This document shows positions 3,792 through 41,520 of a DNA stretch of 64,000 nt, piece after piece (the first letter of the stretch is position 1; each line of letters opens with the position of its first letter). This DNA is from a virus: the UHGV virus genome UHGV-1383976; one strand, written 5' to 3'. Position numbers and translations under genes: made by a program. Under the pieces are notes generated by a model, which made no database searches, was not told where the DNA came from, and saw nothing but the letters and a program-made list of their open reading frames with translations.

Positions 3792-4603
3792 TATCCTACT
3801 CTCTCATTCAATCCAAATTTTTTTGTATCATAAAATTCAGTCCAATATTTTTCGCGTTCAGTTAGCTTATCTTTTGAAACTTTTTCCAGCAATTCAAAAG
3901 TAAAGTTTTCAATCCCATCTTCCTCCATTATGGTATGAAGGCGCGAATGACTGATGGTGCCACAATGATAGGCAGACTTAGCGTGTTGAACCCAACGGTC
4001 GCGCACATTTGTGGATTTGCCTATATAAATTTCGCCTGTTTTTTCACGTGTGATTTTATAGATGCCACTTGGTTGTTCTCCGTTTAAGACACGGCGTGTC
4101 ATTTCAAGGACAGGTTTAGCACAATAAGTATCATAAATCATCTTGTCAATATCAATTCGACGATTGAGCCGTGGAGCAATTTCTCGCAAAACTTGTATAT
4201 CACTTAACGCTTCAGGAGACAAATTGATTTTGAAGAAGGTTTGTTCTTCGATTTTCTTTTTTTCACGACGTATATCTTCATTTAGAACTTCGCGGCGTTC
4301 ACGCAAAGCGTCAAGAGTCTTTTGGACAATATCACATTGATATTGCGCGTCTTGCGTTTCTTGACTTATTTGTTCCATTCGAGCGTTATGTTGAAGTTCA
4401 ACCTCATCAAGCTCTTGTCGATATTTTTCTCTTACTTCTAAGACATTGCGCGCTGCTTCGTCTATAATTTCTTTTTCTTTTCGTAAAACTAAATTTCTTT
4501 TATAATAGTGAATGTATATAAAGTTAACAATTATCAGAGCAGCTATTATGAATATGGCCATCACAATTCCTCCTATATTTCTTACTATATATAAGTATAA
4601 CAT
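3791..4603 (-). CDS. GIY-YIG nuclease with N-terminal transmembrane helix and coiled-coil region
   Basis: C-terminal GIYKITREKTGEIYIGKSTNVRDRWVQH matches the GIY-YIG signature. The N-terminus IVMAIFIIAALIIVNFIYI is hydrophobic. The middle is rich in E/R/K heptads. Confidence 0.7.
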   Translation of the reverse strand: MLYLYIVRNIGGIVMAIFIIAALIIVNFIYIHYYKRNLVLRKEKEIIDEAARNVLEVREKYRQELDEVELQHNARMEQISQETQDAQYQCDIVQKTLDALRERREVLNEDIRREKKKIEEQTFFKINLSPEALSDIQVLREIAPRLNRRIDIDKMIYDTYCAKPVLEMTRRVLNGEQPSGIYKITREKTGEIYIGKSTNVRDRWVQHAKSAYHCGTISHSRLHTIMEEDGIENFTFELLEKVSKDKLTEREKYWTEFYDTKKFGLNERVG

Positions 4604-5203: not shown

Positions 5204-5553
5204 ACTTCATCATTATGCCAACGAGATTTCGCGCGATATTTATCCTGAAATAGTTCGTGCGCATTAGTAAGCGAATAAATATCCCAAAATGGGATGATAT
5301 ACAAGGGAATACAATTGGCTAGTGCATAACTGATTTTTCGGCGATCATGCTCTTGTTGTTTCAGTAAGCCACTACGACCGCCAAAGACTTCATAATAATG
5401 TTGTTGACCATTTACTTCGATAAGGCCGTGCGGCGTTGAAAAATCATAACGGAACCGACCGCCGCGCAAATCCGTGTAAGATACTTCTTTTTGATAATCA
5501 ATATGAGATTTTTGAAGTAAATCGCTTATAAAATTTTCATAATGGCTAGCCAT
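5176..5553 (-). CDS. Vsr/DUF559-like PD-(D/E)xK endonuclease (putative)
   Basis: RFRYDFSTPHGLIEVNGQQHY resembles the Vsr-family core. The start is taken as the ATG at 5553, overlapping the ligase stop as TAATG (coupled). Confidence 0.4.
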   Translation of the reverse strand: MASHYENFISDLLQKSHIDYQKEVSYTDLRGGRFRYDFSTPHGLIEVNGQQHYYEVFGGRSGLLKQQEHDRRKISYALANCIPLYIIPFWDIYSLTNAHELFQDKYRAKSRWHNDEVWREHQNSV

Positions 5554-6662
5554 TATATTTCCTCTATTTGACGCCACAAGCACTCAGATTTGTCTTTGTC
5601 ATCACGGAAGCGCACAAATTTAGGATGTCGCAACATTTTATCATCCGTTAGCTGCATTGCGCTTACTTCAATAACACGGCCAGCATAAGATTCGGGATGA
5701 GACTTTATTTCTTCAGTAAGGCCACTAAGAAAACCAATAGGATGAATCTTATCATTATTATACACCGCGATTTCAAGACTGCCGGCCATTCCATAAAAGA
5801 ATGATTTTGTGACAGGTTCATACTGCGCGCCTTTTGAAAATTCTTTATAAAAATTGCCTTTCTTGAACTCGTTAGTTTTAGTATCAAGCCAATACTCCCA
5901 CGTTTCAATCTCTTTGCCAATATAAGTGCGGGTTGGCTTTGTATAGCGTCCAGTAAAGAAACAATCAATTGTGTCTTCAAGTTCCTTCTTTATTTTGAGG
6001 GAAATCTTAGTTGAACGTTTGCCCGGCTGGTAGATACCATTCTCATTTAGAATAACACCACCCTCACCGCCAGCCGCAAGAGTGTCAGCTATCATATTCC
6101 ACAGTTCCTGTCCCCAATAAAACCTTGCGGCAGTTGCATAGAGATAATGATTATCTTTTACTATATCATCAATATGCGCTAAATAAGACATACGAACTTT
6201 TGCTGGTTGATTCATAAGAGATATGCCATCCCAAGCCAGTATATCAAAAGCATAAAAATGAAGCTTATCATTTTTCTGGCGTGCGATTGCCTTGTCGGTA
6301 AGAGCGCCCATTACTTTGGTGACTTCGCTAGATCCTTCGTGTGTTGGAAAATAAATTTCACCAAGAATACAGGTTCCAATCGGCAAGGCATCAAAAAATG
6401 ATTGAAGTTGTGGGACGTGGTCGAGTTTATCAGCAAAATCGCCACTTACACCACGAGAGCGACTAAGTAGCATCATATTGTTATCTTCATCTTTTACAAA
6501 TTTAGAGAAGTAGCCATCCATCTTACGAGCACCCATCCATTCACCAGAAAAGACGCGCTTACGTGCCTCTTCTTTTGGATCACCTTTATAGGACTTTGGA
6601 TGAGCGTAATAACGCATTGGTTCCATCTCTTTGAAATTAAATCCATCTATATAGCCAAGCAT
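5553..6662 (-). CDS. ATP-dependent DNA (or RNA) ligase
   Basis: Motif I KMDGY (KxDG). Motif IV-like GGEGGVIL. Motif V KISLKIKK. 369 aa. Confidence 0.65.
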   Translation of the reverse strand: MLGYIDGFNFKEMEPMRYYAHPKSYKGDPKEEARKRVFSGEWMGARKMDGYFSKFVKDEDNNMMLLSRSRGVSGDFADKLDHVPQLQSFFDALPIGTCILGEIYFPTHEGSSEVTKVMGALTDKAIARQKNDKLHFYAFDILAWDGISLMNQPAKVRMSYLAHIDDIVKDNHYLYATAARFYWGQELWNMIADTLAAGGEGGVILNENGIYQPGKRSTKISLKIKKELEDTIDCFFTGRYTKPTRTYIGKEIETWEYWLDTKTNEFKKGNFYKEFSKGAQYEPVTKSFFYGMAGSLEIAVYNNDKIHPIGFLSGLTEEIKSHPESYAGRVIEVSAMQLTDDKMLRHPKFVRFRDDKDKSECLWRQIEEI

Positions 6663-7402: not shown

Positions 7403-7922
7403 TTACCATTTCTCCTTCAATTTTTTTTCGAGCCTTGACGGCAAGCTTATCAACTCGCTCATTATAATCTATTCCTATGTGCCCGCGCACTTTTTTCCAT
7501 TGAATGCGAGCGTTTTCAAAGTAAGGAATAAGTTCTAGCCAAAGGCCCTTATTTGCAACAGGCTTTTTTTGTGAGTTCAACCAATTGTATCTCTGCCACG
7601 ACTTGTACCATTTCTGTTCATAACAATTATGAATGTAGGCGCTGTCAGTAAATATCACACATTCATCGAAGCCAGTAAAAGGCGTTTGTTCTGTTAGATA
7701 TTTCAGCCCTTCAATAATGCCGCGCATCTCCATTTGGTTGTTGGTTGCGCCAACCTCACCGCCGCTTTGTTCAGCGATTATTCCTTTGCCTTTCTGAATC
7801 AATACAAAGCCCCAACCGCCAATAGCGCCATCCTTGCCATTTTTACTACAAGCGCCATCAGCCCAAAGCTCATACGTCATAAATCGTTGCCCCTTTCGCA
7901 AAATATGTATCATAAATGTCAC
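7389..7922 (-). CDS. ribonuclease H (RNase HI family)
   Basis: WADGAC...TNNQMEMRGIIEGLKYL...FTDSAYIHN...NKGLW match RNase H catalytic motifs. 177 aa. Confidence 0.85.
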   Translation of the reverse strand: MTFMIHILRKGQRFMTYELWADGACSKNGKDGAIGGWGFVLIQKGKGIIAEQSGGEVGATNNQMEMRGIIEGLKYLTEQTPFTGFDECVIFTDSAYIHNCYEQKWYKSWQRYNWLNSQKKPVANKGLWLELIPYFENARIQWKKVRGHIGIDYNERVDKLAVKARKKIEGEMVNGNS

Positions 7923-8337
7923 TAAAAATATTTACATTGCTTACTCGATTAGAGTGAAGTTCAAAAGCAATTAGATCAAGCGGGTCAATTTTGACATCAC
8001 CGCGTGGTTTAGCAAATGCACCAGCATAGCGGAAGTAATGGAATGACTTAGGCCCAAACTCCTTCCAAACAAATTTGACAAATGCAAACCAATTTTTTGC
8101 GGGCAAATAAATTTTGCTATCTTTTGAGAAGATTACAGTTTTAAGCGCAAGGTGTACTATAGCTTTGTAATTATTGTCAGCCGTGTCTACATTTACAGTG
8201 AACTGTATGTCACCACCCTGTATGTAATGCGAAAAATTTAGATAAGTAATCTGACAAAGGTAATCATAATAGTTATACTTATCATTTATGTCAGCAAATT
8301 CATCAGAGCGATCTTCTCCTGTTTTGAAATCATACAT
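7870..8337 (-). CDS. hypothetical protein (155 aa)
   Basis: SD ggaaaaggagg before the ATG at 8337. First gene of the leftward operon. Confidence 0.5.
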   Translation of the reverse strand: MYDFKTGEDRSDEFADINDKYNYYDYLCQITYLNFSHYIQGGDIQFTVNVDTADNNYKAIVHLALKTVIFSKDSKIYLPAKNWFAFVKFVWKEFGPKSFHYFRYAGAFAKPRGDVKIDPLDLIAFELHSNRVSNVNIFSDIYDTYFAKGATIYDV

Positions 8338-15144: not shown

Positions 15145-15232
15145 GCCCCATCTTCAGTTCTATAGCTGGTGAAGATGGATAGGCGATGAAGTATAGCAAT
15201 AATATGGCATGAGAACTATGATAGTGTTTCAT

Positions 15233-15322
15233 GAGAGCGTAACTCAGTCGGTAGAGTTTTATAGCGTGAAGGGATATGCTATTGAATGCCCTTAGTCGCC
15301 AGTTCGAATCTGGCCGCTCTCA
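15233..15322 (+). tRNA. tRNA-like gene with oversized anticodon region (pseudo-tRNA or insert-containing tRNA); no encoded CCA
   Basis: Perfect acceptor gagagcg/cgctctc, D-arm and T-arm gccagttcgaatctggc. A 40-nt stretch between them contains the stem aaggg/ccctt around a 15-nt loop, atatgctattgaatg. Confidence 0.4.
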
Positions 15323-15350
15323 TTAAAAATATATATGAAGAGGAATAGTT

Positions 15351-16234: not shown

Positions 16235-16254
16235 TAAATTTTGGAGGAAGTAAA

Positions 16255-16515
16255 ATGAAGCTGACAGAGAAAGGGACAATTGTATTTGCCGCTGCGTTAG
16301 AGCATTGTCCCAATGAACCTTTTACAGCGGCCAGTTTATCAACAAAGTGTGGCCTTCCTATTTCTGCAGCTACACTCAATGGTATCACCAATCAGGGACT
16401 TATGACTCGACTTGGCGGTTCGCCCGTTAAGTTTGAGTTAGTTTCTAACGCGAAAGACTTGTATAACAAGGCGCGCGAAGGCAAATCGGCGAATGAAAAT
16501 TTAAATAAAGCGTAG
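16255..16515 (+). CDS. hypothetical protein (86 aa)
   Basis: SD ggaggaagtaaaATG at 16255. The track ORF start at 16174 overlaps the tRNA. Confidence 0.5.
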   Translation: MKLTEKGTIVFAAALEHCPNEPFTAASLSTKCGLPISAATLNGITNQGLMTRLGGSPVKFELVSNAKDLYNKAREGKSANENLNKA

Positions 16516-16581
16516 GTTGCGAAAAATGATGAGTTTTATACTCAATATCAAGACATTGAAAAAGAGATTCTGCAGTATGAC

Positions 16582-17400: not shown

Positions 17401-17598
17401 AGAGAAACTTCCAGAGGTTGCGAATTAGCTATTCAATACAAAATCTCTCAAAATGATAAGGTTTTCGGTGTTTTACTTATCGGTTTTCTATGCAAAATGG
17501 TTCTAACAAGCCAGCGTGCGCGCGAGTAAAAGTTGTTAATAAGCGGTTGGCATACGTGATAAGCCGTTGCCCCAGCGAGAAGATTTAATAAATCTTCT

Positions 17599-17958
17599 TT
17601 GTTGGTGGTGTTTAATAAAAATGCGTCAGTAGCAACCCAGTGGTATGATTTGATTATAGAAAAAGATGATAAATTTGAAACAGTACAATGTAAGTGTACT
17701 GGTTCTCAGAACAACGTCATTAGTCTAAAGTCTTGTGGCGGTACAAAAGGTGAAGCTTATGACAATGTTCTTAATCATTCTGGGCTTGATAAATTATTTT
17801 GCGTGGATATAAATGGTAATATGTACGTGATCCCGATGTCAGAGGTTGTGGCATCTGGAAATACTAAGCAAATTACTTTACGTACTGAACCCACAGCAAA
17901 TAATCAAGGTTTTCAAACTCATAAATTTCGAGTTCAATTCTCGTTTCAAGCGTCGTAA
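17599..17958 (+). CDS. PD-(D/E)xK-like nuclease paralog, N-terminally shortened; GTG or TTG start, possible pseudogene
   Basis: WYDLIIEKDDKFETVQCKCTG aligns with YDFVVDVNGKFIRVQAKTS of 15667..16098. No in-frame ATG near the 5' end. Confidence 0.4.
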   Translation: MLVVFNKNASVATQWYDLIIEKDDKFETVQCKCTGSQNNVISLKSCGGTKGEAYDNVLNHSGLDKLFCVDINGNMYVIPMSEVVASGNTKQITLRTEPTANNQGFQTHKFRVQFSFQAS

Positions 17959-18008
17959 ACCCGTTTCCTTCGAGAGTAACTGGATCGACACCAGTCTGAC
18001 GCACCATT

Positions 18009-18082
18009 TCGGGAATGTGGTGTAATGGTAGCACACTTGATTTGGGGTCAAGGAGAGTGGTTCGAATCCAACATTTCCGACC
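18009..18082 (+). tRNA. tRNA-Pro(TGG), CCA encoded
   Basis: Acceptor cgggaat/atttccg. Anticodon arm cttga-tttgggg-tcaag. Weak T-stem (3 bp). Confidence 0.55.
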
Positions 18083-18086
18083 AAGA

Positions 18087-18174
18087 TGCTGAGTTCCCAT
18101 AGTGGTCGATTGGAGCGGTCTTGTAAGCCGCAGACTTCGTGTCCGCATCAGTTCGAATCTGATACTCAGCTCCA
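18087..18174 (+). tRNA. type II tRNA, Tyr-like (GTA), with an apparent 8-nt anticodon loop CTTTGTAA
   Basis: Acceptor gctgagt/actcagc. Anticodon stem gcggt/gccgc flanking an 8-nt loop. Variable arm agacttcgtgtccgc. T-arm atcagttcgaatctgat. Confidence 0.55.
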
Positions 18175-18178
18175 CTAT

Positions 18179-18254
18179 AAGGGAGTAGCCCAATAGGTAA
18201 GGCAGCAGTCTCCAAAACTGAAGATTAAAGGTTCGAGTCCTTTCTCTCTTGCCA
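18179..18254 (+). tRNA. tRNA-Trp(CCA), CCA encoded
   Basis: Anticodon loop ctCCAaa. T-arm aaaggttcgagtccttt. Acceptor aagggag/ctctctt with G-U pairs. Confidence 0.65.
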
Positions 18255-18288
18255 ATAATTTCATTTTTCAAATTTCCTTTCTTAAAAT

Positions 18289-18335
18289 TTGACTTTTTCA
18301 AAAAATCTTGATATAATATATACATAAGATAAAGA
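18289..18335 (+). promoter_or_regulatory. class I promoter (variant) driving a 13-codon leader ORF and a structured RNA region
   Basis: TTGACT-17-TATAAT, then atatacataagataaagaaaagaaaaag, then SD aaaggagg, then ATGctagtgccacctacacgtggtgtcctctgttttcgcTAA. Confidence 0.55.
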
Positions 18336-18359
18336 AAAGAAAAAGTCAAAAGGAGGACA

Positions 18360-19060
18360 ATGCTAGTGCCACCTACACGTGGTGTCCTCTGTTTTCGCTA
18401 AGAGCGCTGGCATATATCCAATTAAATAATACTAACTCAGTGAAGACGGAATTCGATGTTCCGGCTGAGAAATTCCAGCTAGCACAGCAGAAACGAAACA
18501 AGGATACTTGTGGATACTGGACTGAGAGGCCATCGAGAGATGAGCCGAAGTAGAGCGGTCGCTCAAGTGGGAAGAAGAGCAGGAATTGTGCTGAGTGAAT
18601 CGCAAGCAAACGCAGCCGTGGAGTGGCGAGCGCAATAGACAGCTTGGTGAATAGCCAAGCCGAACCCAAGTTAGGTCTTAGTTGGTGCCTGTGGCAATCC
18701 TTGGGAAAACCAATAAGCTCGTTCCGTTGAGACGACAGGGAATGTGAAATCTGTCTTTGACACTCTACAGCATCCGAGTAGCGGAACACAACGGGGACTT
18801 ATAGAAAAGATGGTCAGTAATAATAGAAATTGCTATTTTATCTTTCTGAACATCCCGTGAAAGGTAGAGGTAATCAACCCTCTGGCGGATTAGGCGACAT
18901 TAGACACTTGGGCTATCCAAGAGTAACAAGTCAATGTTGTTGCTGGGGTAAGAAGTGTATGGGCGACGGCCTGTATGCTCAGACTTATCTCCCGCGTGGC
19001 AGAATATGCTTGAAGGTTTATCGAGGTAGGGCGAAGGCCCAGTAATATTTAGTTGGATTT
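18360..19060 (+). ncRNA. GC-rich ORF-free structured region (candidate large ncRNA) downstream of a strong promoter
   Basis: About 700 nt with stops in all frames of all three codon types and visibly higher GC than its surroundings. Only spurious minus-strand ORFs in the track. Confidence 0.35.
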
Positions 19061-19064
19061 ATAT

Positions 19065-19137
19065 GGCAGGACGAGAAGGTTCTCCATTTGGCCTCATAAG
19101 CCAGATTTCGTGGGTTCGATTCCCACTCCTGCATCCA
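19065..19137 (+). tRNA. tRNA-Met(CAT), CCA encoded
   Basis: Anticodon arm ttggc-ctCATaa-gccag. T-arm gtgggttcgattcccac. G-A mismatch at acceptor position 1-72. Confidence 0.6.
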
Positions 19138-19140
19138 TAT

Positions 19141-19215
19141 GTCGTATTGGTGTTAGTGGCAGCACGATAGCCTTCCAAGCTATATGGAGGAGTTCGAGTC
19201 TCCTATACGACTCCA
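19141..19215 (+). tRNA. tRNA-Gly(TCC), CCA encoded
   Basis: Acceptor gtcgtat/atacgac. Anticodon arm atagc-cttccaa-gctat. T-arm ggagttcgagtctcc. Confidence 0.8.
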
Positions 19216-19361
19216 TTTTAGAAATGTCTTGAACGACAGGAGGTTTTGCTTATGGATATAACAAAATCTAATGAGGACTGCGGTCCAACGAACAGGACAA
19301 AGAGTTGGGCCTCTCTATAAAAAGGCCCTCGTAAGAAAATTTGGAAAGGAAGTAAAGTAAA

Positions 19362-19775
19362 ATGAAGTATTATAGTGATGTTCTTCATACGCTGTTTGAT
19401 ACTCAGGATGCGCTTGAGGAAGCCGAAGCGAAGAAAACCGCGGCAGATGCTGAGAAAGTACATGCAAAAGAAACGGCTAGAAAACGTAGAGAAGAAGATA
19501 AAGAACGTTTCCTTGAGTTGAGAAAGAAGTTCAATAAGATCAGCACTGAGTATGACAAGACATCTAAAGAGTATATGGACTATGCTGATAAGATGATGCA
19601 GGAGTATTCATTAGATGCTGTGCTGGATTGGCTTTCTGATGCTTTTCTTTATGATTGTGCCACAGCTAAGACGAAAGCAGATGCATCATCTACCACAACT
19701 GCTACCACGAAAACTGCGCGGGAGCCTGAAAACTTGGGAGAAATTCTTGCCCGTATTTTTGAGGATATGCGCTGA
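19362..19775 (+). CDS. hypothetical acidic coiled-coil protein (scaffold-like?)
   Basis: 137 aa, rich in E/K/A. SD gaaaggaagtaaagtaaaATG. Confidence 0.55.
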   Translation: MKYYSDVLHTLFDTQDALEEAEAKKTAADAEKVHAKETARKRREEDKERFLELRKKFNKISTEYDKTSKEYMDYADKMMQEYSLDAVLDWLSDAFLYDCATAKTKADASSTTTATTKTAREPENLGEILARIFEDMR

Positions 19776-19789
19776 GAATTTTGAATAAA

Positions 19790-20330
19790 TTGGCGCGATT
19801 GATTATCAAATCGTCCCACGGAGTTGAAGCTAAAACGTTAGCGGTGAATATGGCCATTCCCGCAAGCTCGGCGGTTTGTTAGGCAACCGCGCGGATGTAA
19901 ATTATTGATAGGAAACTTTGGTTTAATTTACTCACTGAAGTTCTCCAAAAGTCGAACTAGAGCCTAAACTGAGTTCGCAGTGCTGAGGCCGGCATACGCT
20001 CGGAGAGGATGCGTTATTGAGCTAATTGGATTAGTGTCAATGTGAGGCAACGGTGGCCAACTCTTAGAGAGCCACGCGACAGAGTTATGCTAAAAGGCAA
20101 TGCCCAGTATCGGTGCCACTAGGGTTGATAGACAAGTAGTAAAAGTCAGGTGAAGACAATACCGGCTGACATAATTGGGACGTAGTCATAGGCGTAGGCC
20201 GTGCCAAAACTAAAAATCAAAGTGTGCGGCACACGAAACCCAAGTCAGATGCGGGCGATTGAAACGGCGCCCTCAACCCATATAAGGTTTTACAAGAGAT
20301 TTTCCTTGTGTTAGACTAAAAAATCTCTTT
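19790..20330. ncRNA. second GC-rich ORF-free structured region (candidate ncRNA or degenerate tRNA-like array)
   Basis: About 540 nt with no ORF. Contains an anticodon-arm-like hairpin gcggtt-tgttaggc-aaccgc. Confidence 0.3.
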
Positions 20331-20343
20331 TTTGTATAAATTT

Positions 20344-20418
20344 AGAGGTATAGTGTAATTGGCAACACATCGGCCTTTGACGCCGTATTTATAGGTTCGA
20401 GTCCTGTTACCTCTGCCA
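20344..20418 (+). tRNA. tRNA-Gln(TTG), CCA encoded
   Basis: Acceptor agaggta/tacctct. D-arm gtgtaattggcaacac. Anticodon loop ctTTGac. T-arm ataggttcgagtcctgt. Confidence 0.65.
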
Positions 20419-20525
20419 ACAGTTCCACATTAGAAAAACCTAATGTGGACTTTTTTATATATATCAGCTACAAAAAATCTACTTAGAAATGCGGGCAACC
20501 GCAAAACACATCAAAGGAGGAGCCT

Positions 20526-21149
20526 ATGGAAGAATTAGGTCTGTTTTTGGGTTTGGGAGATGATGCTAACTATCAGCTTGCTAATCCAAGCCTGTTAGCG
20601 TATTACAAAGAACTCAATGAGCGTCGTCTCTGGCTCGATTGCGAGGTAGATGATGAAGCGATAGGTGATATGTGCCGCCAGATTATTCGCTGGAATAAGG
20701 AGGATGACGCAATAGAACCTTCGAAGAGGAAAAAGATTATTATCTATTTTGTCAGCCCCGGTGGCAGTTTAGACAGCTATCTATGGCTCAAAGACGTAAT
20801 AAATCTGAGTATTACTCCGATAGTTGGTATTATGATGAGCCGCACAGCTAGCGCGGCTGCTCTGATATATCTTCATTGCCACGAACGCTATGCTCTTGAG
20901 AGTTCAAAAATCTTGTTCCATTATGGTTCGATTTCTCTCGCACAAGACGCCGCAAATGCGATTGAGGCGGTAAAAAATTATGAGCAGGAAATCAAAAAGT
21001 TTGTTGACGTAATTCGTGAGCACTCTGACTTTTCAGATGATTATATTCGTGATAAGTTGGTCAAGGATTGGGAACTTACGGCTGACGAAGCTCTCGAACA
21101 TGGCATTGTTCAAAAAATAATAAGCGATATCAGCGAACTCTGGAACTAA
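20526..21149 (+). CDS. ClpP-like serine protease (prohead protease candidate)
   Basis: IIYFVSPGGSLDSYLWL and MSRTASAAALIY resemble ClpP/S14 motifs. SD aaaggagg. Confidence 0.6.
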   Translation: MEELGLFLGLGDDANYQLANPSLLAYYKELNERRLWLDCEVDDEAIGDMCRQIIRWNKEDDAIEPSKRKKIIIYFVSPGGSLDSYLWLKDVINLSITPIVGIMMSRTASAAALIYLHCHERYALESSKILFHYGSISLAQDAANAIEAVKNYEQEIKKFVDVIREHSDFSDDYIRDKLVKDWELTADEALEHGIVQKIISDISELWN

Positions 21150-21160
21150 GGAGGTTTGTT

Positions 21161-21481
21161 ATGGATAAATATACTGGCTATTATGAGTGGCATCCATCAG
21201 AACAAGGACTTGAGGATTTTTATTCTGGCCTTTTTACACCTGCAGGGATGGGCTTGGTTGAAAACCAGTATTTGATTATCTATGACTCCGAAGATAAGGT
21301 TATAGATAAATATTTTTGTAAGAACAATGAATTTGAAAAGGTTCATTATATGGCGCTTCAAAGCGATTACTGTGGGGTTATCAAACCACGCAATGTATAT
21401 CAGGAATTGGCTATTCATTCCCTTATGGATAGACGTGTTCCCGTAAAAGTTTTGGGTGGCGTCTTTGGCTCGGGTAAATAA
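21161..21481 (+). CDS. phoH: phoH-like ATPase, exon 1 (N-terminal part, ending inside the Walker A motif)
   Basis: ORF ends ...VKVLGGVFGSGK then a stop, so the P-loop is cut after GK. The C-terminal PhoH homology resumes at 22412-22942. Confidence 0.55.
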   Translation: MDKYTGYYEWHPSEQGLEDFYSGLFTPAGMGLVENQYLIIYDSEDKVIDKYFCKNNEFEKVHYMALQSDYCGVIKPRNVYQELAIHSLMDRRVPVKVLGGVFGSGK

Positions 21482-22426
21482 CTTGCCCCTTCTTAGGGCG
21501 ACCTAAGAATGAAAATCGCGTGAATTGCTGGAAGCCTAAGCCGCAAGGTATGGTAATCAGCAGCCAAGCCGTTTTAGCAACGGAAGGTTCAACGACTATC
21601 CCGGCAGGGAGTAGGGAGCAATCCCGAAGCGCGCGACAACTTTTGTTTTGTTTTTATTTTAATAAAGGAGGTGAGGTTATAAATAAGTGGACAGATGAAC
21701 AAAAAGCAGAAATTATTGATGATTATACCAAAAAAGGTATGACTTTGGCAGAGATTGGAAAAAAATTTCATTCTAAAGGAGATACAATTAGTAAATATCT
21801 AAAGTCTTGGGATATTCCCATCAATCGTAGAAAGAAAAATCGGCTTATGAATGAAAAGTTTTTTTCTATAATTGACTCAGCTGAAAAGAGTTATTTTCTG
21901 GGCTTGTTATTCGCTGATGGTTCAGTTGTTTTAAATAGCGAGCGGGCGCCATATGTTTCTTTAGAATTAGTAGAAAAGGACAAAGAAATATTAGAAATTT
22001 TCCGTTCATTATTAAATTGTCAAAATGACTTATACTACAATAAGCGAGATAATCGGAAGAATGGAACATATACTTTTGGAGTAAGAAGTCAATTACTAGC
22101 TGATGATTTAGCTAAATTTAATATCATTCCAAATAAAACTTATGAAACAACCCAAGTAATTTTCCCAGAAAATTTTCTTATTGATTTTCTAAGAGGGTAT
22201 ATTGATGGCGATGGCTCTATTTATCAAAATGTTTATAAGGCCGTTTGGAATGGACAAGATGCTAAACGAATTATAAACATTCTCTATTTAAAGAACGATG
22301 GCATTGCGCTCTCTCGAAAACGAGAACGAGCTAAGTTAGCTCAACAAAACAAAAGTTGATGATATAGTCTAATCCCTTTTTAAAAATATCGGGAAACCGA
22401 GGGTATAAATGAAGGATCTTCTAATG
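21476..22426 (+). mobile_element. group I intron (boundaries approximate) carrying a LAGLIDADG homing endonuclease gene and splitting the phoH-like gene
   Basis: GC-rich structured 5' part: ggaagcctaagccgcaaggtatggtaatcagcagccaagcc...gttcaacgacta...atcccgaagcg. It is homologous to the 5' part of the second intron at 34.4 kb. Candidate 5' splice sites fall after U21475 or A21478. Candidate 3' ends fall at G22411 or G22426. Confidence 0.5.
21680..22359 (+). CDS. LAGLIDADG homing endonuclease (two-motif) with N-terminal HTH; start uncertain
   Basis: LGLLFADGSV and LRGYIDGDGSI motifs. The ORF is open from 21520, but no canonical start follows the SD aaaggaggtgagg at about 21662. The first ATG is at 21742. 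Confidence 0.7.
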
Positions 22427-33401: not shown

Positions 33402-34389
33402 ATGATAGGCGTAGACCTAAATCAATATCGTAATCTACCTGATTACGCACAACTTAAAAAGGATGGTTATGAGTTCGCCATTATAAAACTGGCAACTGGT
33501 GTAACCTTTACTAACCCGCTTTTTCAAACCCAGTTTAGTGGTTGTAAGTCAGCCGGCCTAAACATCGGCGTTTATACTCGTGCCGACAAGCAACCTACAA
33601 GCGGCGCACAGGAAGCTGCCTATGCACTCAACATACTAGGTAATCGTCATGTAGATTTCCCCATCTACTATGACGTAGAGGGAGAAACACTAAATCTTTC
33701 AAAAGACAAGCTGACTCAGCTGGCTCTTGATTTTGGTAAAGCAATAAAACGCGCAGGATATCGCTGGGGTATTTATACATCCCGCGCACATTTCAAATGC
33801 TTTGACCTTGACAGGCTGAAAGAAGCTGGCGCATCTATATGGTGCGCCGCCTATGATAATCAAGCTGGTATGGAGTGCGACATTTGGCAAAAGTCAGATA
33901 AAGGCTCTATTACAGGATATTCTGGACCAGTTGATGTAGATGTTTTATATAATGAAAGCATAATACAGAAGGAGGAAAATAAAATGAGTTTGAATTTGAT
34001 AAAATGTTTTCAAACACAAGGCGCGTGGTATAATCAAACCACAAATGGAACTCCTGTTGGGGTATGTTGGCACGATACCGGCGCTGGTAACCCAACATTG
34101 AAGCGCTATGTCCAGCCATCTACTAATGACCCCGATTATAATTATTTTATAAACCTTATCGGCAAGAACAATAATGGCAATCACTGGAATCGTATGGCCG
34201 CAAATCAGGCAGGATTGAACGCTTGGATTGGTCAACTCGCGGATGGCAGTGTTGCTACTGTTCAGGCTGGCCCTTGGGAAAAGCGTCCTTGGGGTGTTGG
34301 CTCTGGCAGATACGGTTCACTTAATGGTGATAAGAATGTGCCTAATGATAAGTTTTGGATCCAGTTTGAGATTACATCGTTGCTAGTCT
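33402..34389 (+). CDS. endolysin exon 1: GH25 muramidase domain plus N-terminal half of an amidase_2 (PGRP-type) domain
   Basis: GH25 motifs MIGVDLNQY...FAIIKLATG...GVYTRA.... Then VCWHDTGAGN...AWIGQLADGSVATVQAGPWEKRPWGVGSG...IQFEI matches the first half of amidase_2. Unspliced, the ORF runs to the stop at 34397. Confidence 0.6.
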
Positions 34390-35469
34390 CCGCGTAAAGC
34401 GATTTGCGTGTAAAAATACATATCGAATTGCTGGAAAACCGTAAAGCTATTCTTGCTACAACGTAAGGATGAAACAAGCCTAAGCGTGAAAGCCGCGAAA
34501 GCAGAAAGAAAAGAATAGATGGCGTATGGTTAAATCCTAAGCGCTATATAATTGGCAATCAGCAGCTAAGCCTTGAATAAAGGAAAGTTCAACGACTAAG
34601 TGCCTTGCAAGCGATTGGCAAGGACAGTGGTATGCGGCTCATTGAGCCGAAGATATAGTCTGTGCTTCGAGAGAAATCCGAAGGAGCGAAAGCTCAGTGC
34701 GGGGTAGCGCCCAAAAAGTTTATTTTGAATGGAGAAAGAAATGACTTATAAAGAATTTATTGACAATATTTTAGAAGAACGAGGACGTTTTTCGTGTGGA
34801 GAGGAATATCACGAGAGGCATCACATTCTTCCTAAGTGCAAAGGCGGCACAGATGATAAAGAAAATTTGATTGACTTATTTGCTAAAGAGCATTTTATTG
34901 CGCATAAATTGTTAGCTGAAGAAAATCCTGAAGATATAAGTTTGGTTAGGGCTTATCAATGCATGACAATAGCTAGAAATCCAAAAACTGCACGATATAT
35001 TGCTTCTTCTGAAGAGTATGAGGAAGCAAGAAAAATGTTTTCAGAAGCTCTCAAAGAATTATATAAAGACAAAACAAAGCATCCAAGCTATGGCAAACAT
35101 ATTAGTGAAGAAAGAAAACAACGAATTAGTGAAGCCAATAAAGGAAATAAGTATTGCGTTGGCCGGAAAGTTTCAGAAGAAACACGCAAGAAAATAAGTG
35201 AAGCCAATTCGAACCCTTCCGCCGAAACGCGTGAAAAAATGAGTCAATCTCAAAAGAAGCTCGCACGGTGGGATGGAGCAAAGAATCCTAAAGCTCGAAA
35301 AGTTGTTCGTCTTTCTGATGGGAAAGTTTATGATTGTATTAAATATGCCGCCGAAGAAAATAATATTCCTCTCTCCACTTTCAAAAGTAGATTACACAAA
35401 GGCAAAGGCGATTTTGTGTATTTCGAAGACTATCAAAATAAACAGCACTAAACACAAACAGATGTGACG
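34390..35469 (+). mobile_element. group I intron (boundaries approximate) carrying an HNH homing endonuclease gene and splitting the endolysin within its amidase_2 domain
   Basis: The 5' portion ggcaatcagcagctaagcc...gttcaacgacta...atccgaaggagcgaaagctcag is homologous to the phoH intron core. The amidase_2 reading frame reopens at 35442 and continues in frame into the PG-binding and SH3b domains. Confidence 0.5.
34729..35451 (+). CDS. HNH homing endonuclease with NUMOD3-like C-terminal repeats
   Basis: HHILPKCKGGTDDKENLIDLFAKEHFIAH is an HNH core. Repeats SEERKQRISEANKGN, SEETRKKISEANS and SAETREKMSQSQK. Confidence 0.75.
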   Translation: MEKEMTYKEFIDNILEERGRFSCGEEYHERHHILPKCKGGTDDKENLIDLFAKEHFIAHKLLAEENPEDISLVRAYQCMTIARNPKTARYIASSEEYEEARKMFSEALKELYKDKTKHPSYGKHISEERKQRISEANKGNKYCVGRKVSEETRKKISEANSNPSAETREKMSQSQKKLARWDGAKNPKARKVVRLSDGKVYDCIKYAAEENNIPLSTFKSRLHKGKGDFVYFEDYQNKQH

Positions 35470-37617: not shown

Positions 37618-38823
37618 ATGCTTGATGTAAAAATTTTTGCACGTTGTATTGAACAGACCGCTGAAGAGCAAATATACGATTTAGCCGCCTCGTCGATAGG
37701 AGAAAACGCGCACATACGAATAATGCCGGATGCGCACGCTGGTAAGGGATGCGTAATTGGAACTACTATGTTAGTAAAAGATAAGATTTGCCCTAATATT
37801 GTTGGCGTTGACATTGGATGCGGAGTTACTGCTGCAAAAATTAACTGTCCTTTGATCATGGATGAGTTAATGTTTTTGCGCGAACGCCTTGTAGATGGCG
37901 CAATACCATCAGGAAGCACTATATACAACGAATTTAGAGATTGGGATCCTTTTTTTGAACTTGGCGCAACTATCCTTCGTAAGTTGAGATGTAAGGAAAT
38001 TTACAATAAGTGTGAAATTGATTATTTTGCTAAGTCTATGGGAACACTCGGAGGCGGAAATCATTTCATTGAAATAGACGAAGACTCCGATGGCAATCAT
38101 TGGATTGTTGTACATACTGGCTCGCGCAATTTGGGCCTTCAGGTAGCAAAGTATTATCAAAACAGAGCAGAAATGCGAATTCTTGAAGAATATACTCACA
38201 AGCGTAATGCAGCTATCACTACGCTGAAAGAGGAAGGCCGCCAGCGTGAAATTTCAGAGGTATTAGCCTCTATCAAAAAAGATGCGCCATCTAAGTTTGA
38301 TTATTTAGTAGATAATGACTATAATAACTATCTTCGCGATATGGCACTTTGTCAGAAGTGGGCAAAATATAACCGAGCAAATATTATTTATAACATTGCT
38401 GCAATTTTAAATCGCAAAGTTACAATGACAGTTGAGTCAGTTCATAACTATATAGATTTTTCAACTCAAACACCTATCCTCCGCAAGGGCGCAATTTCGG
38501 CTAAGTATGACGAGATTTGTCTTATTCCACTCAATATGCGGGATGGTACGCTACTGTGCCGTGGAAAAGGTAACTCTGATTGGAACTTATCAGCTCCACA
38601 TGGAGCCGGACGACTTATGTCTCGCGCTCAGGCAAGAAAAGAATTATCTTTAGACGAGTTTGAAAAATCAATGGACGGCATTGTGTCAAACGTTTGTGCA
38701 GAAACCATTGATGAAGCACCTTTCGCTTACAAGAATTGGGAAGAGATTGAAGAAGCTGTGCGGCCTACCGTTGAAATTATTGACCACTGGAAGCCAATTT
38801 TCAATTTTAAGGCGATGTCTTAA
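37618..38823 (+). CDS. rtcB: RtcB-family RNA ligase (3'-phosphate/5'-hydroxyl)
   Basis: MPDAHAGKG, GVDIGCGV, GGGNHFIEID and HTGSRNLG are RtcB signature motifs. 401 aa. Confidence 0.85.
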   Translation: MLDVKIFARCIEQTAEEQIYDLAASSIGENAHIRIMPDAHAGKGCVIGTTMLVKDKICPNIVGVDIGCGVTAAKINCPLIMDELMFLRERLVDGAIPSGSTIYNEFRDWDPFFELGATILRKLRCKEIYNKCEIDYFAKSMGTLGGGNHFIEIDEDSDGNHWIVVHTGSRNLGLQVAKYYQNRAEMRILEEYTHKRNAAITTLKEEGRQREISEVLASIKKDAPSKFDYLVDNDYNNYLRDMALCQKWAKYNRANIIYNIAAILNRKVTMTVESVHNYIDFSTQTPILRKGAISAKYDEICLIPLNMRDGTLLCRGKGNSDWNLSAPHGAGRLMSRAQARKELSLDEFEKSMDGIVSNVCAETIDEAPFAYKNWEEIEEAVRPTVEIIDHWKPIFNFKAMS

Positions 38824-39505: not shown

Positions 39506-40342
39506 ATGATAAATCCGCAGGAATATGTAAATAAGGCATATCAGCTTGGCGAAAAGGTTTATGGTAATCGTCTTATATTCGCCGCACATTACGGCTCTTT
39601 CAATTATGGCCTTGCCGATGAGGAAAGCGATTGTGATGTCGCTCTTATTGTAATGCCATCAATGGAGGAAATTGTAAGGTGTGAAAGCTCCAACACTCCA
39701 TTGAAGCACGTTCCTGAAGGCGACATTGATGTAATTGATGTTCGCACTTTTGTTAGACGATTGGCTAACGCTGAGCTTAATTCTCTTCAGTATCTTTATG
39801 CGCCTTATCACAAGTGGAATGAATATTGGAATGATACTTTCGCGTCTCTTCACGGCAAGTTTCTTTGGGATATTGCTATGATAAATCCGTATGAACTTTT
39901 CTATAATATGCGGGGTGTAATAGCCCGCGCAAGTAAGCGAATGGATAATGTTAGTGAGAAAAATCCCTTTAGTCCATCTTGCTCTAAAGCTATTTATAAT
40001 GCAATGCGAATGATCGACCTTGCGAACGCATTCGCTGATGATATTGAGGAAAATGGTCTTGGCACTTATAACGACATCAATATATTTTCTTGGGAGTATG
40101 GTGTTCATAGTAGGAAGGACTTGATGGCAATGAAACGCGGTTTATATTCATACACAACCGCCCGCGATTGTATTGATTCGTGTATGAAAGAAATTGATAA
40201 GTTCCATGATATATTTATCAATGAGGACAATGAAACCATAGCTTTGGATAATCGTGCGGTACAGCGTCTTGAGCGAATGATTGAAGGCGCTCTCATTAAA
40301 CTTTACTTCAATGAAGCGGCTACACCAAAATTTTGGTCATAA
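39506..40342 (+). CDS. nucleotidyltransferase-fold protein (Pol-beta superfamily); possible tRNA or RNA end-modifying enzyme
   Basis: YGSFNYGLADEESDCDVALIV matches the hG[GS]x9-13Dh[DE]h NTase signature. SD aaaggag. Confidence 0.55.
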   Translation: MINPQEYVNKAYQLGEKVYGNRLIFAAHYGSFNYGLADEESDCDVALIVMPSMEEIVRCESSNTPLKHVPEGDIDVIDVRTFVRRLANAELNSLQYLYAPYHKWNEYWNDTFASLHGKFLWDIAMINPYELFYNMRGVIARASKRMDNVSEKNPFSPSCSKAIYNAMRMIDLANAFADDIEENGLGTYNDINIFSWEYGVHSRKDLMAMKRGLYSYTTARDCIDSCMKEIDKFHDIFINEDNETIALDNRAVQRLERMIEGALIKLYFNEAATPKFWS

Positions 40343-40346
40343 AAAT

Positions 40347-40395
40347 TTGATTTTTTCTCGAATTTTCGATATAATATATATAGAAAGTGAGAGAG
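40347..40395 (+). promoter_or_regulatory. class I promoter driving the tRNA-like element
   Basis: TTGATT-17-TATAAT, then ATATATAGAAAGTGAGAGAG. Confidence 0.6.
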
Positions 40396-40401
40396 AAATA
40401 T

Positions 40402-40480
40402 GGGCCGGATAACTCAGATGGTAGAGAACCAGTGCGGTTAGGCGCTGGAGGAGGCGGTGGTTCGAATCCACCTCGGCCCA
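40402..40480 (+). tRNA. atypical tRNA-like gene (79 nt, no encoded CCA) with a 6-bp anticodon stem and an 8-nt loop cgGTTAgg
   Basis: Acceptor gggccgg/tcggccc. Perfect T-arm ggtggttcgaatccacc. Anticodon region ccagtg-cggttagg-cgctgg. Confidence 0.4.
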
Positions 40481-41330
40481 ATTAGATATGAAGGCGACAT
40501 ACAGTTATTATAGTCGCCGGACGTACTGCTCCGTCCATTACGAACAGAGCAGCCCCGCAAAACGAGGGTGAGAGTTGAGTTTGTTGGTTTTACTTGAAAC
40601 CGCCGTCGGGGTAAGTGGCGTTACATCTTACCAAAAAAATCCGTCTGACTGCAGTAAGGGCGGTTGGTTTGTAGGTTTGCCAATAGGTATAAGTCTAGAT
40701 ACCAATAAAATACTTACCAAAGAGGAGTAATATGGCTGAAGTCCTCCAGCGTGGTTGATATGTTGAAATGCCTAGGCCACGCACATATGTCAGTTTAGTT
40801 TAACGAGGGAAAACAACGCCCGTCAAGGCGTAATTTCGGGTTCGAGTCCCGAAACTGTCCTTGGTTTGACAGGCCAAGAAATTTGTCAGGTGCGGCCCTT
40901 TGTCGCCGGTCGAGACTCCGTCCGGAAATGAGCTACGTCTAAGTAAGAAGCGTGAACTTAGCGCTGATGTGCGTGATGCATCGGTTGCGTGTCCAAAACA
41001 CGACAGGTTTGGTTGAGTTTTCTACACAAAATTCAATTGGGTCAGGCCGCCCACAGGATGGCCGCGGGTTCCACTCCCCGAACGAAAAACAATCGGGAAA
41101 TCTCTTGTTTTTCTCAATTTTGTTAGTAGTTAGTCGCATTGATGAAATTGCTTTTTGGAGTAAAGTTGTGAGTAGCTAAAGAAATGACAATTCTTTTTCT
41201 ACTCAAAAAGCCAAGTATCCGCCTCTGCTTGGACATCCGCGCGAGGTTGCGTGTTGATGAAAAGCGTGGAAGGCAGTTATATAATGGGGACTGCCGCATA
41301 GTTGGTTTAGGAGAGTTGCCAGCTACGGAA
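40481..41330. ncRNA. third GC-rich ORF-free region with embedded tRNA-like fragments
   Basis: About 850 nt with no ORF. Contains tRNA-like gtcagtt...acgcc-cgtcaa-ggcgt...tcgggttcgagtcccga-aactgtc (6-nt anticodon loop, no CCA). Confidence 0.3.
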
Positions 41331-41332
41331 AT

Positions 41333-41409
41333 GGCGCATTGGACGAACTGGTAGAGTCACCACCCTTTCAAGGTGGAACTTAGGGGTTCAAGCCCCCTAT
41401 GCGTCACCA
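41333..41409 (+). tRNA. tRNA-Glu(TTC), CCA encoded
   Basis: Acceptor ggcgcat/atgcgtc. Anticodon arm ccacc-ctttcaa-ggtgg. T-arm aggggttcaagccccct. Confidence 0.65.
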
Positions 41410-41469
41410 ATAATTTTCATTTTTATATTCCCTTTTCTTAGAGTCCCGCGTAGATTAGCTACGCGGGAT

Positions 41470-41520
41470 TTGATTTTTTAAGAATTTTTATTATAATATA
41501 TATAGAAAGTGAAAAGAAAG
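41470..41520 (+). promoter_or_regulatory. class I promoter overlapping a terminator hairpin
   Basis: cccgcgtagattagctacgcggg hairpin, then aTTTGATT-16-TATAAT, then ATATATAGAAAGTGAAAAG. Confidence 0.55.

Follow-up and report, generated by a model that had tools for sequence, protein, structure and literature searches.

The transfer RNA (tRNA) islands of the UHGV virus genome UHGV-1383976, of which we analyzed a stretch of 64,000 nt (the window), contain three segments poor in open reading frames (ORFs), here called regions 1, 2, and 3, that are very probably genes for stable structured non-coding RNAs built into phage tRNA operons. Judged from its covariance-model match, region 1 is a ROOL RNA, that is, a new instance of an already known class. 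At least four more conserved structured RNAs, besides ROOL, are packed into the tRNA operons of this phage, among them a tRNA-shaped element at 20118-20283 that closes region 2. As part of the same overall explanation, the source of all three segments is most likely an uncultivated human-gut phage of ~130 kb. All coordinates are those of the window and refer to the plus strand unless stated otherwise.

tRNA calls made with ARAGORN and with the Rfam tRNA model (RF00005) placed the three segments inside tRNA islands, as an earlier sequence-only reading of this DNA had stated. That reading had reported no ORF in any frame. This is true of regions 2 and 3, whose stop-free runs do not exceed 43 and 78 codons, respectively, but not of region 1, where an antisense ORF of 138 amino acids starting with GTG (129 stop-free codons) runs through the ROOL gene. 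Given its overlap with a ROOL match of 272 bits, this ORF is almost certainly spurious. The G+C content of the three segments is raised, as had been noticed (45-47% versus 39.6% for the window, about the 95th percentile of 600-nt windows), whereas the ~35% given for their surroundings is lower than this measured background.

To identify known RNAs, we ran the Rfam 15 covariance models over the whole window with Infernal at gathering thresholds. This check, which the earlier reading had proposed, assigned region 1 to ROOL (RF03087) at once, and ROOL was the only large non-tRNA RNA matched. The features of this locus are:

18289-18317, plus strand: sigma-70-type promoter with extended -10 (TTGACT, 17-nt spacer, TG-n-TATAAT)
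18353-18411, plus strand: structured 5' leader of the ROOL transcript
18353-18358 with 18384-18389: leader helix A
18362-18369 with 18404-18411: leader helix B, crossing helix A
18370-18372 with 18379-18381: leader inner hairpin
18390-18395: leader U-rich run
18361-18402, plus strand: apparent 13-codon ORF inside the leader, not conserved
18412-19059, plus strand: full-length ROOL RNA gene, 648 nt
18373-18789, minus strand: antisense 138-amino-acid GTG ORF through ROOL
19060-19137 (ARAGORN) or 19066-19133 (Rfam, marginal at 29.1 bits), plus strand: tRNA-Met-like gene with a G1.A72 mismatch read by eye
19141-19215, plus strand: tRNA-Gly, downstream of the tRNA-Met-like gene

The ROOL match reached 271.8 bits (E 4.4e-61; the gathering score is 99.1) and spans positions 1-574 of the 574 in the model, so that it is not truncated, with a minority of the aligned pairs marked as non-standard. 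ROOL ('Rumen-Originating, Ornate, Large') RNAs have an average length of 581 nt and occur in phage and prophage genomes, as a rule next to tRNAs (Weinberg et al. 2017, PMC5737381), and cryo-electron microscopy has shown that ROOL forms a homo-octameric nanocage without protein, its function being reported as unknown (Kretsch et al. 2025, PMC12286853). The window copy shows the published hallmarks: the full model is matched, the gene lies in a phage and within a tRNA island (tRNA-Pro, tRNA-Thr, and tRNA-Trp upstream), and tRNA-Met and tRNA-Gly abut its 3' end, which lies 0 to 6 nt from the tRNA-Met-like gene depending on whether the ARAGORN or the Rfam ends are taken. It differs from the family in carrying ~70 extra nt in variable loops and in having, outside the Rfam model, a structured 5' leader of ~60 nt that is specific to the clade and contains two crossing helices.

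Relatives of the phage were retrieved with the 137-amino-acid ORF at 19362-19775 as query, which returned three IMG/VR contigs of 75-132 kb (L001, L002, and L003) and many human-gut metagenome assemblies, Hadza samples included. Homologues of the 137-amino-acid protein, all from gut metagenome assemblies, are 48-100% identical, and a Pfam search assigned the protein to no family. The window carries phage-type genes, the relatives are IMG/VR viral contigs, and they are 84-96% identical overall. Among GenBank phages (INPHARED), blastn searches with 17900-20500 and with region 3 returned tRNA fragments or nothing, and tblastn of a 491-amino-acid window protein gave only one partial match (12%); judged from this collection, the phage appears to have no cultured relative. 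A pattern scan of viral contigs yielded mostly chance matches plus three relatives already known, and the adjacent ClpP-like gene, used as a route to more distant syntenic phages, returned near-identical homologues only. In the relatives used for comparison of ROOL and region 2, 4-fold synonymous sites are ~0.80 identical to those of the window, whereas ROOL is 93.5-95% identical and the region 2 core 86-92% identical. The conservation in relatives that the earlier reading had asked to see was thus found in these ~130-kb gut phage contigs, in which regions 2 and 3 are kept above the level of synonymous sites.

The ROOL orthologues of L001, L002, and L003 scored 271-277 bits. L003 carries two ROOL genes (L003 78-672 and 5108-5754; the best blastn segment is ~72% identical), and the extra paralogue scores 304 bits, has the same promoter type without the leader, and is followed 11 nt downstream by a tRNA-Met. 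To look at the tRNA arrangement more widely, we used a 30-nt ROOL motif in common with the window copy to fetch 70 IMG/VR viral contigs (L106-L175), many of them probably interrelated. Of the 66 contigs with enough flanking sequence, 48 have a tRNA on the same strand that begins no more than 30 nt from where the 3' end of ROOL is expected (mostly at -5 to +5), and in 31 of these 48 it is tRNA-Ser(GCU). This arrangement points to RNase P cleavage of a ROOL-tRNA precursor as the maker of the 3' end, and suggests that RNase P may generally define the 3' end of ROOL.

The promoter upstream of ROOL, which had been described as strong, agrees with the consensus at 11 of 12 positions, is the only match of that strength in 17500-20700, and is conserved in relatives. 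Between it and ROOL lies the leader, in which helices A and B each show 2 compensatory pairs with 99.2% of cells paired (seven distinct leader sequences), while slid controls on the leader alignment gave 0 compensatory changes. Since two lineages were sampled, each of these compensatory pairs may represent a single event. Helix B stops one base short of where the ROOL model begins. We thus take the leader to be a structured RNA specific to this clade, which is a pseudoknot or else a two-state element. The leader hairpin and U-run scored as terminator-like, and attenuation through partial termination at this site, independent of translation, may occur.

Region 2 lies downstream of the ROOL-tRNA block and is organized as follows:

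19362-19775, plus strand: hypothetical protein gene, 137 amino acids, fast-evolving, between the ROOL-tRNA block and region 2
19790-20117, plus strand: 5' part of region 2, a variable clamp hairpin (19790-19818) followed by a multi-helix domain of ~300 nt
20118-20283, plus strand: tRNA-shaped, cloverleaf-like element, 3' part of region 2, with no Rfam 15 match
20294-20334, plus strand: intrinsic-terminator-like hairpin closing region 2 (AAGAGAUUUU ... AAAAUCUCUU, then UUUUU), read from the sequence
20344-20418, plus strand: tRNA-Gln(UUG), 9 nt past the terminator-like hairpin
20424-20449, plus strand: terminator after tRNA-Gln(UUG)

An Rfam 15 scan of 19200-20450 at E≤10 gave only tRNA matches and noise. 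We analyzed the structure of region 2 with RNAalifold on 14 distinct sequences, which resulted in 171 pairs with 98.2% of cells paired, and counted the pairs changed on both sides, comparing them with 500 column shuffles, which ignore phylogeny, and with slid controls. Seventeen pairs are changed on both sides versus 7.8±1.8 in the shuffles, none of which (0/500) was as high, and at most 5 in slid controls. Helices 1-16, which form the 5' domain, hold 15 of these 17 pairs, 6 of them in the helix at alignment columns 249-288. The frequent G-U pairs on the plus strand fit transcription of region 2 from this strand. All relatives, even the divergent L085, L092, and L101, keep the stem of the 20294-20334 hairpin. 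No homologue of the 5' domain was found with nhmmer in 108 other phage loci (0.9 Mb in total), and this domain was found in this phage clade only. Profiles of region 2, 3a, and 3b (the latter two being the RNAs of region 3) were run with nhmmer on 70 other contigs with ROOL and on 38 additional loci, in which only the region 2 3' domain turned up.

In this 3' domain, a closing stem of 7 bp encloses UA, a stem of 3 bp whose loop has 11 nt, a second, short stem (7-nt loop, AAGACAA), a long variable arm, the linker GAUGC, and a hairpin of 5+3 bp. Its sequence is almost invariant within the clade. We built a covariance model from 20118-20283 and searched it against other ROOL-bearing contigs. The first match outside the clade, of 106 nt (98-nt core; E ~4e-8), was in the unrelated contig L140, in which the closing helix is completely re-paired and the element follows a tRNA-Gln at one nt within an island of 24 tRNAs. 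We next searched with a 21-base pattern derived from the loops in common, which retrieved 34 viral contigs (30 of them new), at least 120 metagenome contigs, and 8 GTDB contigs. Family models confirmed 27 further viral loci and, among the matches listed, 73 of 80 metagenome loci; of the 8 GTDB pattern matches, the family model upheld a single one, and that weakly (24.9 bits). In all, there are more than 100 instances of the family. Only one copy is present in the window, with a score of 116.8 bits (E 1e-29) under the family model.

The family covaries very strongly. Its covariation score is 0.41 versus 0.13 in shuffles with 28 distinct sequences, and 0.60 versus 0.18 with 73 sequences, and does not exceed 0.10 in slid controls; all 7 pairs of the closing stem occur as 3-5 pair types each across the family; and 91.7% of the structure is paired versus 26-40% in slid controls. 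The consensus reads: 7-bp stem; UA; GgC-AAGuAUUAAAA-GcC; G; a 2-4 bp stem with loop AAGAnAA; a variable arm of ~16-150 nt; GAUGC; a 5+3-bp hairpin (GuGuG-A-UuG-AAA-CuG-CaCaC); and the 3' strand of the closing stem. Family members lie mostly inside phage tRNA islands, in loci with up to 26 tRNAs; the majority have tRNAs no more than a few hundred nt away, and about half of them are 1-13 nt from a tRNA on one or both sides. Searches of Rfam returned no match at gathering thresholds (20 loci), at E≤5 (five loci), or at E≤10 (the 98-nt minimal member).

Several features liken this family to class II tRNAs. The 7-bp acceptor stem and the cloverleaf-like junction are backed by covariation, the closing stem is followed by UA, a 3-bp stem with an 11-nt loop, and a long extra arm, and counterparts of U8, A9, G10, A14, G15, A21, G26, and C48 can be read from the consensus. 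Like tRNAs, members sit in tRNA arrays, a few nt from their neighbours. Unlike class II tRNAs, they have an anticodon arm of 2-4 bp with the invariant loop AAGAnAA and no U33, a D-loop without GG, a last hairpin of 5+3 bp with an AAA loop, a variable arm that ranges from ~16 to ~150 nt, and no encoded CCA; a 5-bp anticodon stem, a variable anticodon, and a T-psi-C loop are likewise absent from the consensus. They also escape tRNA finders: RF00005 gave no match at E≤10 for the window element and the 98-nt member or at E≤5 for five members, and ARAGORN made no call on the window element. Because the equivalent of the anticodon arm is degenerate, the tRNA-shaped RNA cannot decode, and we consider it, speculatively, more likely a tRNA mimic, acting as a decoy or binding platform, than an adaptor.

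Known tRNA mimics include the YrlA Y RNAs, which have canonical D- and T-arms and a GNCGAAN0-1G motif that binds Ro60, and of which at least one, whose acceptor-like stem has 7 bp, is an RNase P substrate to which CCA is added (Chen et al. 2014, PMC4201824). The family resembles YrlA as a non-coding RNA of ~100-200 nt with a tRNA-like module, but the Ro60-binding motif and the canonical D- and T-arms are not found in its consensus, and it has no Rfam Y-RNA match. The family may be new, bearing in mind that the lack of an Rfam 15 match does not mean that it has never been described. In the literature, we found no named description of it; this covers named RNAs, and lists of unnamed phage RNA candidates were not compared. 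Thousands of such candidates of 29-151 nt, tRNA-like ones included, have been reported (Fremin et al. 2023, PMC10690425), and parts of this family could be among them.

Region 3, located further downstream, is composed of the following features:

40347-40375, plus strand: promoter of the region 3 operon (TTGATT, 17 nt, TATAAT), within a copy of a repeated promoter cassette
40401-40481, plus strand: first tRNA slot, an aberrant tRNA with an 8-nt anticodon loop
40482-40788, plus strand: structured spacer RNA 3a, ~307 nt
40789-40860, plus strand: embedded tRNA-like element with a 6-nt anticodon loop, 42.9 bits
40861-41332, plus strand: structured spacer RNA 3b, ~472 nt, with T-loop-like GGGUUCCACUCCC
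41333-41409, plus strand: tRNA-Glu(UUC)
41445-41479, plus strand: intrinsic terminator closing the operon

The two aberrant anticodon loops agree with the decayed tRNA-like pieces that had been noticed here. The first slot holds an ordinary tRNA-Phe or tRNA-Ser in relatives, and the 6-nt loop of the embedded element is kept in 5 of the 6 relatives examined; in L105, the slot of this element (about 4276-4410) is occupied by a tRNA-like gene with a long internal insertion. Both spacers covary: with seven sequences, 3a has 9 pairs changed on both sides versus 2.9±1.3 in shuffles, and 3b has 15 versus 5.9±1.6, in each case with 0 of 500 shuffles as high and at most 3 pairs in slid controls. The covariation check across related phages that had been proposed therefore placed region 2, 3a, and 3b above all 500 shuffles. 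Across relatives, 3a is 76-96% and 3b 85-95% identical; in four more distant relatives 3b is 85-89% identical versus 76-78% for the adjoining RlaP gene. The spacers of region 3 are more conserved than the surrounding tRNAs, and 3b more than 3a. In an Rfam search of 40300-41500 (E≤10, permissive filters), nothing beyond tRNA matches and noise was obtained, and 3b has no match among GenBank phages. Altogether, regions 2 and 3 are conserved structured RNAs and not junk. The suggestion that the three segments are large structured non-coding RNAs is right for all three, but region 1 belongs to a known class.

These observations lead to the following model. A strong host-type promoter would transcribe ROOL, beginning with the structured non-coding 5' leader, and the transcript would continue into tRNA-Met and tRNA-Gly; a cut by RNase P at the 5' end of the tRNA would release the 3' end of ROOL. 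By homology with the ROOLs solved by cryo-electron microscopy, this copy may assemble protein-free into a homo-octameric cage, and its role, as a best guess, would be tied to phage tRNA or translation during infection. Segment 2, downstream of ROOL and probably in the same transcription unit, would comprise the clade-specific ~300-nt domain and the 160-nt tRNA-shaped module, followed by the terminator hairpin and tRNA-Gln. The tRNA-shaped module is most likely recognized and trimmed like a tRNA, and this RNA probably enters tRNA-processing pathways; we speculate that it serves as a decoy for host tRNA-targeting defences or tRNA-handling enzymes, or as a binding platform. Region 3 would form one operon of promoter, variable tRNA, 3a, tRNA-like element, 3b, tRNA-Glu, and terminator, in which the tRNA-like units would act as processing punctuation that releases the two conserved structured RNAs. 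Phage T4 offers a precedent for such a mode: its stable RNAs C and D (species 1 and 2; ~120-140 nt) lie in the T4 tRNA gene cluster, are co-transcribed with the phage tRNAs, and are released by tRNA-processing enzymes. The mode proposed for regions 2 and 3 is alike, as likened by description only, but the T4 RNAs are much shorter than the RNAs of these regions.

Taken as a whole, our tentative proposal, which we regard as a serious possibility rather than as the probable outcome, is that the 20118-20283 domain represents a previously unnamed, widespread tRNA-shaped class of large-phage tRNA arrays that has kept a tRNA-like core and acceptor stem, has lost anticodon function, and possibly consists of mimics, and that the region 2 5' domain, 3a, and 3b are possibly new large RNAs of the ROOL/GOLLD kind. 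Several points weigh against our main explanation, that of structured non-coding RNAs built into tRNA operons. The region 2 5' domain, 3a, and 3b come from one closely knit phage clade only (7-14 distinct sequences), so each of their compensatory changes may amount to one or two events, and the shuffle control takes no account of shared ancestry. The stretches of highest conservation are invariant and thus silent on pairing. The minimum free energy of region 2 as a whole is unexceptional (z = -0.5 on the plus and -1.7 on the minus strand); with folding energy uninformative, it is covariation that provides the structure evidence for this region. Since the members of the tRNA-shaped family were aligned by fitting them to the model, the pairing percentages are somewhat inflated. 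The terminator-like hairpins between promoter and ROOL and between region 2 and tRNA-Gln make co-transcription across them uncertain. Finally, the transcript ends, stability, and processing of all these RNAs are deduced, and cage formation by this ROOL copy is predicted from homology.

We weighed four other explanations. The earlier reading had seen in region 1 an attenuator-like leader, in which translation of the 13-codon ORF MLVPPTRGVLCFR would control the terminator hairpin and hence the downstream RNA. In the window this ORF is preceded, 5 nt ahead of its ATG, by a strong Shine-Dalgarno-like AAAGGAGG, and a hairpin and U-run lie downstream of its start. However, the ATG is replaced by ACG or AAG in L101, L085/L086, and L092 (4 loci) while the crossing helices are kept by compensatory changes, which indicates that the ORF is not a gene. 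In divergent relatives the Shine-Dalgarno-like GGAGGAC changes to GGAGAGC jointly with its partner, GUCCUC to GCUCUC; because it co-varies with its pairing partner, the GGAGG stretch is the 5' strand of a compensated helix and not a ribosome-binding site. Moreover, the second ROOL copy of L003 lacks the whole leader despite having the same promoter. We thus consider peptide-dependent attenuation very unlikely. That region 3 (3a, the tRNA-like element, and 3b, together ~850 nt) is a single, highly divergent, cage-forming GOLLD-type RNA is unlikely as well, if somewhat less so. GOLLD RNAs exceed 800 nt, occur near phage tRNAs, sometimes contain tRNAs in a linker, and are more conserved in their 3' than in their 5' part (PMC12286853); region 3 recalls this layout and, if taken as one molecule, this size, with an embedded tRNA-like element between a less conserved 3a and a more conserved 3b. 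The GOLLD model (RF01998), however, gave no match at E≤10 in 19200-20450 or, with permissive filters, in 40300-41500, so regions 2 and 3 cannot be assigned to GOLLD, and region 3 has no sequence similarity to ROOL or region 2, the likeness being architectural only. Local alignments among ROOL, region 2, 3a, and 3b were indeed no better than shuffles, and for this reason a GUGAAGA...CCGGCUGA likeness between ROOL and region 2 seen by eye does not count as evidence of homology.

A further alternative, also raised by the earlier reading, is that regions 2 and 3 are non-functional debris, that is, decayed tRNA genes or precursor spacers whose conservation only reflects close kinship. The aberrant tRNA-like pieces of region 3, the 84-96% overall identity of the sampled relatives, and the lack of homologues of the region 2 5' domain, 3a, and 3b beyond the clade in the phage loci searched would be expected of debris. 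Against this, the spacers are more conserved than 4-fold sites and than adjoining genes, those of region 3 more even than the true tRNAs beside them; substitutions in compensating pairs are far commoner than in shuffled or slid controls; and the conservation of the region 2 3' domain extends to a large number of unrelated phage contigs. We therefore regard relics or junk as quite unlikely. The related idea of processed tRNA-precursor spacers is compatible with the anatomy, since a tRNA or tRNA-like element abuts the 3' end of each RNA except that of region 2, where it lies 64 nt beyond; it explains how the ends would be made, but not why the sequences are conserved. The elements could also act as DNA, for instance as a replication origin, packaging site, or recombination hotspot, and they are conserved and non-coding, with repeated promoter cassettes nearby. 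Yet the compensatory changes preserve Watson-Crick and G-U pairing on the plus strand, many of the conserved G-U pairs would read as A-C mismatches in the complementary strand, the elements lie within tRNA transcription units bounded by promoters and terminators, and region 1 is a known RNA family, which makes action as DNA extremely unlikely. Structured non-coding RNAs within the tRNA operons remain the explanation that we favour.

Other features of the window and of the contigs examined were recorded alongside these RNAs:

37618-38823: RtcB RNA ligase gene, upstream of the region 3 operon
39506-40342: RlaP-type nucleotidyltransferase gene (RNA repair), immediately upstream of the region 3 operon
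about 11361, 11991, 17350, 18285, 36568, 38824, 40341, 48306, 48984, and 50534: copies of the promoter cassette (nhmmer)

The RtcB/RlaP arrangement is kept in the relatives L102-L104, and no RtcB was called in L105; in some bacteria, YrlA genes are linked to RtcB RNA-repair loci. The promoter cassette, of ~55 nt (AAATTTGAyTTTTTc...GATATAATATATAyAGAAAG), occurs at ~10 sites in the window, and in L140, a viral contig unrelated to it, the same cassette follows the tRNA-shaped element. Group I introns (Rfam RF00028) were matched at 21466-21741 and 34334-34683 (66.7 and 71.2 bits), the first of which overlaps a LAGLIDADG-type ORF of 279 amino acids (21520-22359) between ClpP-like and PhoH-like genes. 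Two tRNAs are odd in size: an 87-nt 'tRNA-Thr(UGU)' with a long variable arm (18088-18174) and a 92-nt tRNA-Phe (15232-15323). A G+C-rich stretch after tRNA-Lys (16235-16580), considered as an extra RNA candidate, was rejected, as it contains an ORF of 86 amino acids with a good ribosome-binding site instead. In L181, a phage-borne transfer-messenger RNA (2019-2334) was found whose Rfam match overlaps the 5' end of the model match of the tRNA-shaped element by 4 nt. L140 encodes a tRNA with a CUA (amber-reading) anticodon (7884-7958), and in its 24-tRNA island the inter-tRNA spacers of 100-250 nt at 5340-5995 (minus strand) are ORF-poor and several of them G+C-rich; islands such as this one may hold further unclassified structured RNAs.

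Phage tRNA islands attract interest at present as a means of countering host defences directed against tRNAs. To our knowledge, closed cages made of RNA only are built by just two natural RNAs, one of which is ROOL. This locus presents it in a clean natural context, with a strong promoter, a conserved leader with crossing helices, and a tRNA abutting its 3' end, an arrangement that would tie ROOL expression to the expression of phage tRNAs. For structural and biochemical work, the tRNA-shaped family provides targets that are compact (~100-200 nt) and covary well; if truly undescribed, it would be a new player in phage tRNA islands.

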